Shown here one piece after another: positions 39,001 to 42,000 of a DNA stretch of 51,464 nt (positions are counted from its first letter, which is position 1; each line of letters begins with the position of its first letter). The position numbers were made by a program. Source of the stretch: a virus (Duplodnaviria; Heunggongvirae; Uroviricota; Caudoviricetes); IMG/VR virus record IMGVR_UViG_646311923_000011; one strand, 5' to 3'.

Positions 39001-42000
39001 AATGCCTCTGGACACAAGATGCTTACGCGCTACAGCCTGTTGTTCAAATGTAAGTCCGGTTTCGTGTTGTATCTCTTCACGCGTTTTATGTACGCCTTCC
39101 GCTGCATGTGCTTTATCCTGCCAGTAAAAAATCTGACCAAAGAAAATAACAGCGTGCGGACTTCCCATGTATTTAACGAGCCCAGGGTAATAAGCAACCG
39201 GATGCCCAAAATCGAGCAGAAGATCAGACGGACGCATAGCCACCTCCCAGGCGCTTAAACATTTTCCCGGACTGAAAAGCCACCAGCGGATAACTCCGGG
39301 TATGAGTACGTCCCTGAACCTGGCAGACAACCTTCTGGCTTTCTGTATTGACTAGGCAAACCCGCAGAACGTGGCCGTTGCTGGTGGTGAACCACTGCCC
39401 CACACGGGGGCAACGGTTGTATCGGTGATACAGGGAATTAACGATGTAGCGGATCATGGACGCACCTCCGCCGTAGTTACGTATTTAACCGGGCTACCTT
39501 TCATTGAGATGGTTTCACACATCTCTGCCGCTTTCAGTTCCGCCGTTTTTCTGGATTTATAGCGACGGTGCCAGACAGATACATCCGTGCGAACTGATAC
39601 ATCGTTTCTGTATTCCGTAGTGGAGATGATGATTTCGTAACTAATCATGGGCGCACCTCCCATTGATTACGGTGGAAATCGGTGTGATTCAGACCGGTTT
39701 CAGCTTCATGGAATACTTCAATGCAGCTCTCGTAGTACCGCATTGTGCGCAGACTTAACCCAAGCTGAAGCATCATCAGACCATCAAGGGTTATGTAATA
39801 ACCACGCAAAGAGTCACCATAGAGGTGATAAGTGCACGGTATGAAATTGCGGGTAAAAAATTCGCGCGAACAGTTCAGATACTCGATTTTATCGACGATG
39901 TTCTGGTGCATTCGCTTAAAGTGGCAGGCGACATGCAAAGAGAAAATAACGGCCTTGCCGTTGACGCTCTCAATTTTGAGGAATGAGTGGGTTGGGACTG
40001 TAGCCATGATGGCAGCCTCCTTGATCGGTGAAATACTTCCACCACCGGAAACGCCAATTTCGCTGGTGGTGAACTGAACGGGGTTGGCGTAACCGGTGAT
40101 CAAGGAAACCGGCGCATCTTTCGATGCCCCCGCCCAGCCCACCATAACTTTGATGTGAGCAAATGCGGACGATAAAAAAGACGCTGGCGCGTCATATATC
40201 GCCTTGATCAATTCCAGGACGCCAATCCCGGCACCCGCTTTATAAGGTGCAGAGACAGTGTAACGTCCCGAAATTGCAGAATCAATATTTGGTCTTGAAA
40301 TGATCATATAGCTGCTGATATCTTTAGAACTGTTCTTGGATGTTTCGGAGCCGTTTTATGCGAAACAGCTCCCCGTTATTGATGTTGAGTGAGCCGGGTT
40401 ACTCCCGGCTTTTTTTCACCGCTGCCAACCAATAACCTGAAATAACCCCATTTTCGGGTGATACCAGCGAGTCCCTCGCGGTTCTGCTTCCTCCATAACC
40501 CGATAAAAAGCAGCCATAAACGGTTCCACAGCAACAATTGCGCGACGTGACAACAATCCGTCCGACGTCATGAACTCGTGGGTGTCTGTAGGAATTTGAT
40601 AAGCGTTCACCAGATTGCAGCATTTATCATCTGACAAACCGGTTTTCGCTTTCAGTTGGCGATATCCGGCATAGCCCTCACGAATGGTGCCCTTTTTGAT
40701 TTGCTCGACTGTTTCGGCAACATGGCTGACTTTTTCTTCCACCTGAGTGATCCGTTTCTGCTGACGAACGGCTTCAAGAGCCATCGCAGCAACCATTTCG
40801 ATTTCGCTCATTGGCTTACGGATCTGTTCTTCCAGTTCGCGCCAGCGATCTACCAGGCGGGCAGTGAATTCAGGGCAGAGCTGTGCGACGACAATGATGC
40901 TGTCGCGTTTACCTTGTTCTCCTTCAAACAGGTAATGCTCATATTGAACTTTAAAACCTAAGTTATTGATTTTCTCGGAAACAGCCATTGGCGGTTTCCG
41001 GATGATGTTTTTAGCAACCAGGCGTTCGATACTACGTTTAACATCTGAGTGCTGACTACCCACCAGCTCTGCGATCTCAACGCTGGTCATGGATGCTTTT
41101 CCGTTAAAAATTGCGGTGTTCACTACCATCTCCTTGCGGATAAATTCTTTTAAGATTCCGCACATTCGTACTTATTGGTGCCGAACCTTCCTTCAGTTAT
41201 CCTTTTGATCTCTATAAACAAAAGAACCAAAGGAGGTTCGACATGAAAGTTCAGGCCGTTGGTTTATTCTGGTTTCGCGATGCGATTCAGTATCATGAGC
41301 TCAAAAATATTTTTACTGATGCTGATGTGCTCTCCGACAGTTACACCGAGTGGAAGCACGACGCTGAAAAATTGATTAAGCGTGTCGAAAGAGGCGGGCA
41401 ACGAGTTATTAAAGTTGAAGCGGATACAGCCGAGTTCATCGCCTGGTGTACAAGCGAAGGCATCGGAATCAATGCCGAAGGTAGAATGCAGTTCGCATCC
41501 TTTAAGGCTTACCAACAACTTCTCAGCGAACGCTAATGTGATTGGGGCAATCGAAATGGTTGCCCCATCGTATTTAATAGTTATTTTTTCGCTCATATCA
41601 CCACCATCACTTCCCATCTTCCGTGTGCGCTAGGCTTGGATTTGAAATTTTGCGTAACGAATCAGGAACTCCATCTTCAGGGTGAGGATAAAGATCTGGC
41701 CTTAAGCCATGTGGTGTGACCTTCCATGCAACTACTTCACATACGCGTAAAACAAAACGAGCAGGAATTGTGTTTTTTGAAAACCATTGATTCACCGCTT
41801 GCGGCGTCACACCAAGATTTCGCGCTATGGCATTTTGCGCAATTAATGTACGAAGTTTGTCGTAATCATTTCCTTTCATAACAAAGCACCAACATTAACT
41901 TTATAAATCAAGAATACATCAAGTTTAAATTAACATGCAAGTTGCAAAAGGATCGAATACACTAAAATCAAGTAAAGATTTATCCTTGTAAAGAAACCCA

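Follow-up and report, generated by a model that had tools for sequence, protein, structure and literature searches.

A probable antisense-RNA immunity cassette and a shared ribosome-binding junction at the head of the early replication operon in an Eru7-type prophage of Escherichia coli

The DNA analyzed here (the window) is the 51,464-nt Caudoviricetes record IMGVR_UViG_646311923_000011, which is 100% identical to a prophage of Escherichia coli strain 14EC047; coordinates are those of the whole window, and all features of the early operon lie on the minus strand. The region in question stands between the Rha-family gene rha (41165-40416) and an O-like replication initiator (39237-38344), and it contains three open reading frames (ORFs) of 220, 64 and 77 amino acids (aa). 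The 220-aa ORF (ORF1, 40307..39645) is an open frame that begins after a 108-nt gap downstream of rha, and it is followed by h64 (ORF2, 39648..39454) and h77 (ORF3, 39457..39224). As the first-pass annotation of this DNA had claimed, the three ORFs are chained by ATGA stop/start overlaps, which the coordinates place at 39648-39645 (220-aa ORF/h64) and 39457-39454 (h64/h77). The 3' end of h77 in turn overlaps the initiator ORF (ATG 39237) by 14 nt, and its last codons carry the Shine-Dalgarno (SD) sequence of the initiator. In the 14EC047 record, the Prokaryotic Genome Annotation Pipeline (PGAP) labels for the three ORFs are "ash family protein" and two hypothetical proteins. The length of 64 aa for h64 is that given by PGAP in this record; the mechanical ORF list starts it at an upstream ATG, giving 69 aa, and that ATG has no SD. 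It is likely that the locus forms the head of the early replication operon in an Eru7-type lambdoid prophage of E. coli, and that the first 300 nt of the 220-aa ORF are an antisense-RNA immunity cassette of the P4 CI/P1 C4 type, as judged from RNA family matches and covariation.

The genes downstream of the chain are typical of a replication module. The initiator was assigned from phrog and Pfam matches and from the PGAP annotation of comparison locus L001; it is followed after a 17-nt gap by a DnaC-like loader (38326-37436), which is joined by an ATGA overlap to a DnaB-type helicase (37439-36039). The family matches of these replication genes (36039..39237) are phrog_270, phrog_50 and IstB_IS21. 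The region corresponds to the catalogued Eru7-type replication region of Shiga toxin (Stx) phages, whose reference phage Stx2_14040 is locus L006 in our comparison set (PMC8951638). With respect to lambda, the three ORFs resemble cII in position only, between cro and the replication genes; here the slot is filled by predicted RNA-based control and Rha-type genes. None of the three ORFs gave a lambda CII match in Pfam, PHROGs or NCBIfam, so the earlier statement that no cII is recognizable stands. The accompanying statement that none of the three proteins matches a known family has to be withdrawn, as ORF1 matches Ash, Phage_pRha and phrog_995, ORF2 matches phrog_7046, and ORF3 matches phrog_1153.

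Within its first 300 nt, ORF1 contains matches to two RNA families. An isrK/P4 SeqA-like leader RNA (40174..40250, minus strand) matches Rfam model RF01394 over its full length (1-77) with 64.2 bits (gathering score 50), and a terminator-like site in the terminator scan supplies its terminal hairpin at 40193-40180, with a U-run. Downstream of it, a C4 or P4 CI-type antisense RNA (40062..40149, minus strand) matches positions 1-87 of the 87 in model RF01695 with 82.3 bits (gathering score 45). A constitutive promoter is predicted just upstream of both (40257..40285, minus strand), with a -35 element TTGATT at 40285-40280, a 17-nt spacer, a -10 element TACACT at 40262-40257 and a start near 40250; it would be the analogue of PLE in P4 and of PisrK. 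All 52 distinct upstream contexts retain the block A[T/C]ATTGATT...TACACTGT, and similarity is lost to the left of the -35 element, as expected of a cassette that brings its own promoter. The promoter scan did not list TTGATT-17-TACACT, because only 8/12 consensus positions match. The boxes expected of a C4 system are also in place on the minus strand. Target boxes a1 (40226-40219) and b1 (40210-40202) lie inside the isrK-like RNA; the C4 RNA holds b' in a loop (40108-40097) and a' as a single-stranded box (40090-40083); and a downstream copy of the target follows as a2 (40058-40051) and b2 (40026-40016). The b2 box (GATCAAGGAGG) overlaps the SD AAGGAGG (40022-40016), which is located 8 nt before an ATG at 40007.

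The pairing of these boxes is maintained by covariation. The 34 leaders contain five a-alleles and seven b-alleles in 19 haplotypes, and in 19/19 haplotypes a1, a' and a2 change together, as do b1, b' and b2; one box allele that differs from the window is GTCAACGG. Consequently, the cognate b2:b' helix has 11-12 bp in 19/19 haplotypes, compared with a mean of 5.8 bp for non-cognate combinations, and the cognate a2:a' helix has 7-9 bp, again in 19/19 haplotypes, compared with a mean of 3.9 bp. For the three helices of C4 itself (27 pairs), 100% of the cells are paired over the 34 sequences, compared with about 40% for slid partners, and 8 pairs are changed on both sides. When the isrK helices are included (45 pairs), 93.3% of the cells are paired, versus 37-47% when the partners are slid. 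In the stretch that matches Ash, variation is concentrated in the RNA pairing boxes, which change in threes. The layout of the boxes is that of immI in P1/P7 and of seqA/CI/seqC in P4, and the reassorting a and b alleles look like heteroimmunity specificities. Immunity of the C4/CI kind is a known type of system, but it appears to be unannotated in this context.

The same stretch carries a protein family label. Pfam PF10554 (Phage_ASH) matches ORF1 at aa 16-106 (E=8.5e-18, 65.2 bits, gathering score 26), and this span coincides with the isrK and C4 RNAs; ORF1 also matches phrog_995 (E=1e-93) and, on aa 123-203, Phage_pRha. It could thus be argued that the cII slot simply holds three ordinary protein genes and that ORF1 encodes a true regulator of 220 aa with an Ash and a Rha domain, given these matches, the PGAP label "ash family protein" and a frame that is open in 61/61 relatives. 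We regard this as very improbable, and the substitution pattern speaks against it. In the first 300 nt of ORF1, the variable columns are distributed 54/50/58 over the three codon positions (p=0.74, 49 distinct homologues), so the search for protein-level selection on the Ash-matched segment detected no third-position excess, in contrast to the last 360 nt (33/30/77, p=3.6e-7) and to h64 and h77. Only the last 120 codons of the 220-aa ORF behave as protein-coding. In addition, the first 100 codons coincide with two Rfam RNAs that score above gathering and show compensatory changes, their variation sits in the pairing boxes, and an open frame lacking amino-acid constraint fits the precedent of P4 eta.

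The Ash model itself points in the same direction, since it also matches the obsolete P4 'cI gene product' ORF (NC_001609, comparison locus L133, 8168-8584), which overlies the CI RNA. An identification of Ash with P4 epsilon was considered but does not hold: epsilon belongs to PF25738, and the Ash match in P4 falls on the old cI ORF. A published survey of satellites used PF10554 as its epsilon profile (PMC8628076). The PGAP label 'ash family protein' therefore probably marks RNA cassettes in many genomes, and for annotation this means that the "ash family protein" and Pfam Ash labels sit on a locus whose conserved signal is an immunity RNA. The earlier description of the locus as three unknown genes is accordingly no longer suitable for the first of them, whose leader matches an RNA cassette and shows no protein-level constraint.

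Since the 5' 300 nt would be an RNA cassette, the first real cistron would be a 120-aa Rha-domain ORF with its own SD (39645..40007, minus strand; SD and start AAGGAGGCTGCCATC ATG at 40007), ending in ...WEVRP*. Its SD and ATG (GGAGGCTGCCATCATGGCTAC) are nearly invariant in the 34 leaders, with G/A at two positions and C/T at two. The Rha match to PF09669 reaches 25.2 bits against a cut-off of 29.9 (E=2.5e-5), and TIGR02681 on ORF1 aa 109-208 reaches 37.5 bits against 45.95 (E=2e-9), so both scores lie under the curated thresholds but agree with a Rha assignment; the ORF also matches phrog_518 (E=1.4e-13) and is 41% identical to the Rha domain of a 282-aa relative in PhiR49_2. Among PHROGs, the neighbours of this Rha domain carry antirepressor annotations. 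In position, the Rha-domain ORF corresponds to kil of P4 and anrP of Gifsy-1.

Upstream of the ATG at 40007, its frame stays open over 312 nt or more in 61/61 distinct leaders, including P4, compared with 0/61 and 24/61 for the other two frames. Internal indels in the leader alignment are limited to a single-nucleotide deletion that is compensated 24 nt later by a single-nucleotide insertion in the same sequences. It is likely that the 220-aa ORF is an eta-like read-through frame, with an entry point ahead of the cassette promoter and no frame change on passing into the Rha-domain ORF. Such a frame, open yet free of amino-acid constraint, is what the eta precedent in P4 predicts. The start of the frame in the window, ATG 40307, has no SD in this context.

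Two further arrangements of this stretch were seen. In L010 and L011 (both 1328-1507) and in L012 (2326-2505), a 59-aa DUF4222 gene lies just upstream of the RNA cassette and overlaps, in another frame, the start that the annotation gives for the 'ash/Rha' ORF. Annotations of Stx1 phages treat the whole stretch as a single 340-aa 'Ant' ORF.

The closest parallel to this arrangement is satellite phage P4. In P4, the isrK model matches 8692-8615 and the C4 model 8507-8420, in the same order and on the same strand, and the C4 match is the CI immunity RNA, so that an isrK (SeqA)-type RNA precedes a C4 (CI)-type RNA in both elements. The likeness extends to a promoter-like -35/-10 pair at the same position upstream of the leader, a long frame that is open through the leader, a conserved SD-ATG (GGAGGCTGCCATC ATG GCT AC) that starts the first translated gene, and replication genes downstream. 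The P4 ORF after this SD-ATG has 65 aa, which is reportedly the length of Kil in Forti et al. 1999, and it shares only Met-Ala-Thr with the Rha-domain ORF. On the other hand, the cargo is a Rha-domain protein here and the 65-aa Kil there; the replication genes are of O/DnaC/DnaB type rather than alpha primase; the host element here is a lambdoid prophage with a protein CI/Cro switch; and the pairing boxes have other sequences. As summarized from Forti et al. 1999 in PMC10111431, P4 eta begins ahead of the constitutive promoter PLE, with translational coupling to the preceding gene; its translation through the leader prevents immunity-specific termination, and Kil is a short form made from an internal start.

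The immI region of P1/P7 (c4 - icd - ant), with which the locus was compared by description, likewise has a C4 RNA with a' and b' and the targets a1b1 and a2b2, and its downstream copy covers the ribosome-binding site (RBS) of the first ORF. The P1/P7 C4 boxes, the RBS target and heteroimmunity are reportedly the subject of Citron & Schuster 1990 and Biere et al. 1992. Cargo and gene neighbourhood are not the same as here, and at least 5 x 7 box alleles reassort in the present family. In P1/P7, control spreads by translational coupling and Rho polarity, and the box alleles give heteroimmunity (PMC7313666). The third relative, the isrK - orf45 - anrP - isrJ locus of Salmonella Gifsy-1, has been studied experimentally: its own promoter, a 77-nt IsrK and a leaky terminator were shown, as were a stable processed RNA downstream (STnc1160) and AUGA stop/start coupling into the antirepressor, and orf45 is conserved in nucleotide but not in amino-acid sequence (PMC4825925). 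The lambdoid prophage context and the anti-repressor-like cargo are common to both loci. However, the orf45-like frame here runs in frame into the Rha-domain ORF, an arrangement that has been reported for S. dysenteriae (PMC4825925); only the Rha domain is left of the cargo, and h64, h77 and replication genes come after it; and IsrK of Gifsy-1 was tested as an activator supplied in trans.

Another finding concerns the junctions between the chained genes. The consensus GGAGGTGCG[C/T]CCATGAT occurs in two copies on the minus strand, J1 at 39660-39644 (GGAGGTGCGCCCATGAT) and J2 at 39469-39453 (GGAGGTGCGTCCATGAT). Each copy comprises an SD GGAGGTG, a spacer (CGCCC in J1, CGTCC in J2) and ATGA(T). 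The two are identical at 16/17 positions, lie 191 nt apart and are the sole matches in the window even when 3 mismatches are allowed, which bears out the earlier report of nearly identical junctions. By our own arithmetic, the chance of a second copy of a 17-mer with at most one mismatch in 2 x 51 kb is about 3e-4. A third junction, J3 (39247-39235, minus strand; GGAGGTGGCTATG), consists of the SD GGAGGTGGCT and the ATG that starts the initiator, within the 3' end of h77. The shared EVRP ending of the upstream proteins, which had also been noted before, is found as WEVRP* and AEVRP*, and it arises because the upstream frame reads the SD GGAGGTG as Glu-Val.

A strong ribosome-binding signal explains part of this likeness. 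SD plus ATGA account functionally for 11/17 junction positions; of the remaining 6 positions, 5/6 match (about 0.005 by chance), and relatives keep them. The spacers at other junctions of this operon family are different (GGAGGTGGCT, GGAGGTGTTCT, GGAGGTGTGGC and GGAGGTTGT), and similarity often runs into the first codons (ATG ATY CGC YAC), to about 26 nt, across non-homologous partners. Because the positions outside SD and ATGA match and because other junctions use other spacers, the likeness exceeds a generic RBS consensus, although it is partly owed to it. The reservation raised in the first pass, that the similarity might be only the generic RBS consensus, is thus justified for the 11 functional positions, but the spacer and flanking bases are conserved beyond that consensus. 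Folding of the RNA around the junctions was no better than that of shuffled sequences (z = 0.2, -0.75 and 1.3), and the idea that local RNA structure sequesters the junction SDs found no support there. Since the junction RNAs fold in an ordinary way, coupling would rest on termination-reinitiation and a strong SD and not on SD unmasking.

A variant of the junction that is one base shorter (GCGCC ATG TG...) is present in L009 (2142-2375; proteins P0055-P0060). The one-base-short form moves the upstream stop two codons on (...EVRHVQ*, ...EARHV*), and it precedes a different 77-aa gene starting with MCNN.

Comparison with related prophages indicates where the modules are exchanged. A single junction connects the 220-aa ORF directly with the 77-aa gene in the Stx2d phage Stx2_112808 and in six other Stx2 phages, which lack h64; h64 is absent in L002, L004, L006, L008 and L011. 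BLAST pieces against Stx2_112808 (L002) end at 39643 and resume at 39469, with 18 subject bases matching J1 as well as J2; the two repeats therefore delimit a 191-bp segment that is present in the window and missing from the phage. A further comparison used 11 loci that were selected by BLAST alone and are therefore free of motif-selection bias: in 11/11, homology blocks begin or end at 39660, 39643-39645, 39469 or 39241. The layouts among these relatives include first genes of 277, 282, 283, 306 or 340 aa, presence or absence of h64, h74 in place of h77, extra genes and a different initiator.

The wider survey used IMG/VR loci picked by the exact junction 17-mer, and its counts are biased by that selection. 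The scan gave 123 instances, nearly all in this gene family. With a relaxed junction pattern, three mutually unrelated upstream flank types (the end of the long Rha gene, of h64 or of the 220-aa ORF) meet three unrelated downstream flank types (h74/77, h64 or the start of an internal "ash" ORF), and 8/9 combinations were found, a table that only repeated exchange at the junction can give. Breakpoints were then mapped in 249 distinct alignments. Three points account for 86% of the 122 homology starts in the region: 37% fall at 40293-40286, 35% exactly at 39469 and 14% at 39660-39657. Homology ends are found at 39243-39241 (23%) and at 39645-39640 (22%), together 45%, and in 43 distinct alignments the break falls on the first G of GGAGG. 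One type of junction precedes h64, h74/77 and internal RNA-cassette ORFs, and similarity starts and stops at a short junction that non-homologous neighbours share, as at a mosaic boundary or linker of lambdoid phages.

These comparisons support the interpretation of the repeated junction as a module boundary at which related E. coli prophages swap genes. The first-pass annotation had suggested that homology of this kind lets modules be swapped and had proposed a comparison with lambdoid prophages; the absence of h64 between the two copies, the edges of the homology blocks in all 11 relatives and the 8/9 flank combinations agree with its suggestion. With the SD and the start codon forming the 5' edge of every cassette, the junction is common to otherwise unrelated neighbours. 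Cassettes (h64, h74/h77 and extra RNA-cassette/Rha units) would be gained, lost and permuted there; the simplest route would be recombination or slippage, either at the 17-26-nt junction itself or within longer homology on its flanks. Boundary (linker) sequences that are conserved at the gene junctions of mosaic lambdoid phages were reportedly described by Juhala et al. 2000 and Clark et al. 2001. The present case resembles them in its short conserved sequence at gene borders, abrupt change of similarity and optional small genes; it differs in that the linker is a 17-26-nt SD-ATGA unit reused by three gene families, and in that a precise 191-bp presence/absence case and a reassortment table accompany it. 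As such, the junction data provide a clean, countable case of cassette exchange at a defined ribosome-binding linker.

It is also conceivable, although in our opinion unlikely, that the junctions are alike only because function has driven them toward the best coupling signal (extended SD, 5-nt spacer and ATGA), and that illegitimate recombination at random sites was followed by selection for functional joints, the shared 17 nt having no role in recombination. The Hendrix-type view of phage mosaicism, in which exchange is random and selection follows, counts in favour of this alternative, as do the 11/17 positions taken up by SD or ATGA, the GGAGGT(G) common to all junctions of the operon and the same 17-mer in four unrelated high-GC phages. 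Nevertheless, non-homologous partners share the spacer CG[C/T]CC and the nucleotide that follows ATGA, with other spacers at other junctions of these operons, and the similarity often reaches the first codons. The h64 indel is bounded exactly by two copies, like a deletion or insertion between direct repeats, and the repeated break on the first G of GGAGG is also difficult to reconcile with random sites.

Tandem RNA-immunity cassettes in one operon were observed in L007 (1681-1956 and 2319-2380), L035 (9062-9337 and 9909-10179), L090 (7355-7630 and 8011-8286) and L118 (6674-6944 and 7696-7966). In L035, L090 and L118, the two cassettes carry different a/b alleles, and the second is joined through the same SD-ATGA junction.

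By analogy with P1 immI and P4, the most likely function of the cassette is that its RNA silences the first cistron, and that translational coupling and Rho polarity would extend the silencing to the O, DnaC and DnaB genes. The promoter at 40285-40257 would make the leader. Part of the transcripts would stop at the terminator and yield the 77-nt IsrK/SeqA-like RNA, and the remaining leader transcript would be processed into the 88-nt C4/CI RNA. The a' and b' boxes of C4 would then pair with a2 and b2, and b2 covers the SD of the 120-aa Rha-domain ORF (ATG 40007). Linked to one another through ATGA or other short overlaps, the Rha-domain ORF, h64, h77 and the O-like initiator would act as a ribosome relay, in which each strong SD (GGAGGTG) sits in the last codons of the preceding gene and the DnaC-like and DnaB-like genes come close behind. 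Once C4 blocks the first SD, the coupled cistrons would be poorly translated, and the naked transcript would be open to Rho; the cassette promoter could then not express the replication genes in a lysogen. In contrast, transcripts that arrive from upstream (from pR through rha) would be translated through the leader in the open, eta-like 220-aa frame and would escape the block.

Several observations weigh against this explanation. The promoter is inferred from conservation, with its 8/12 consensus positions; ATG 40307 lacks an SD and is uncoupled from rha by the 108-nt gap, so that read-through translation of the leader is uncertain here; and the effect tested in Gifsy-1 is activation by IsrK in trans and not C4-like repression. 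Since the junctions fold no better than shuffles, their strong SDs may initiate alone, and coupling may be partial. As regards the exchange of modules, selection by the 17-mer biases the IMG/VR counts, and the four high-GC phages with the same 17-mer imply that SD and ATGA can converge.

It is possible, although we have doubts about it, that the cassette controls only an antirepressor-like Rha protein, as in P1 immI and Gifsy-1, which would inactivate the repressor of its own or of another prophage, and that the replication genes are expressed independently through pR read-through and their own strong SDs. The cargo of P1 is icd-ant, the PHROG neighbours of the Rha domain are antirepressors by annotation, and the junction SDs are strong and unstructured. 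In Gifsy-1, the cargo is the antirepressor AnrP (PMC4825925). Against this restricted role, the cargo here is the 120-aa Rha domain alone, without the C-terminal part of its 183-187-aa relatives; neither a terminator nor a gap was found between the Rha-domain ORF and O in the ORF list and terminator scan of the window; and the same cassette gates replication genes in P4 (PMC10111431).

RNA immunity and mosaicism might even be mechanistically linked, a suggestion that we put forward tentatively and do not regard as probable. Escape from C4/Rho silencing would need an unbroken run of ribosomes from cistron to cistron, and every cassette would therefore have to carry the same SD-ATGA junction; the relay forced in this way would subsequently become the preferred crossover point. 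If this is true, the shared 17-26-nt junction would permit gain, loss and permutation of cassettes, including tandem RNA-immunity units of different a/b specificity, and the at least 5 x 7 reassorting box alleles would amount to a combinatorial heteroimmunity code that gates Eru7-type Stx replication modules.

The two small proteins of the chain are real genes by their substitution pattern. The variable columns of h64 are distributed 17/10/36 (p=1.8e-4) and those of h77 21/22/41 (p=0.011), a third-position excess in both cases. h64 matches phrog_7046 (E=2e-48), and its family comprises 14 clusters at 90% identity, of which all that carry an organism name are from E. coli; in view of its presence or absence between the two junctions, h64 is an optional cassette. 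Its AlphaFold2 (AF2) model is confident (predicted local distance difference test, pLDDT, 95), and the structure search gave no informative neighbours for it. h77 matches phrog_1153 (E=6e-42) and belongs to a family of 50 clusters at 90% identity, whose named sources are nearly all E. coli, with 21 representatives at 50% identity among 1.84 billion proteins in an exhaustive profile search. The AF2 model of h77 has a pLDDT of 78, and Foldseek returned weak SH3/KOW/Tudor-like barrels (best E=0.026), which is suggestive of the fold only. Membership of h77 in DUF4222 was rejected: the match has 15 bits against a gathering score of 27 (E=0.019), 19/29 members of the h77 family gave only weak DUF4222 matches (best 0.0033), and the exhaustive profile search found no large family. 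For the three ORFs, sequence searches against solved structures gave nothing meaningful, and NCBIfam gave only the sub-threshold Rha match. The structure prediction and remote-homology searches that had been proposed for the three proteins thus yielded narrow families and a confident h64 fold, but no function for h64 or h77. Our best guess, made with low confidence, is that both may be accessory early proteins that act with the replication module.

Some part of a 1351-bp query, mostly the RNA leader, is present in 1349/5426 complete E. coli genomes, and the same cassette precedes the replication genes of Eru7-type Shiga-toxin phages. In the Eru typing study, the Ash and Rha domains are described as being of little-known function, and the small ORFs are not discussed (PMC8951638). 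An RNA checkpoint on the replication genes could affect induction and toxin output.

The gap between rha and the leader contains several elements on the plus strand. A promoter-like TTGAAA-18-TATCTT with an upstream TG is located at 40295-40324, a strong terminator (stem at 40391-40411 plus T7) follows, and an sroD-like match in the 40295-40418 region has 24.5 bits, below the gathering score of 50. Together, these elements could yield an RNA of about 90 nt that would be antisense to the end of rha as well as to the 5' part of the 220-aa frame, in a position reminiscent of lambda OOP. The interval between the cro-like gene and rha contains, also on the plus strand, a 97-aa ORF (41243-41536; hypothetical according to PGAP), with a terminator-like hairpin after it at 41543-41567. 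Farther away, two ALIL pseudoknots, the frameshift element of the IS3 family, are found at 45209-45325 (minus strand) and 47600-47716 (plus strand) with 120.3 bits each, a pair that indicates two inverted insertion sequence (IS) element copies near the immunity region. Finally, a small RNA match of the STnc100 family (104 bits) and three tRNA genes form a cluster downstream of the replication genes, at 32003-32175 and 32947-33193, both on the minus strand.

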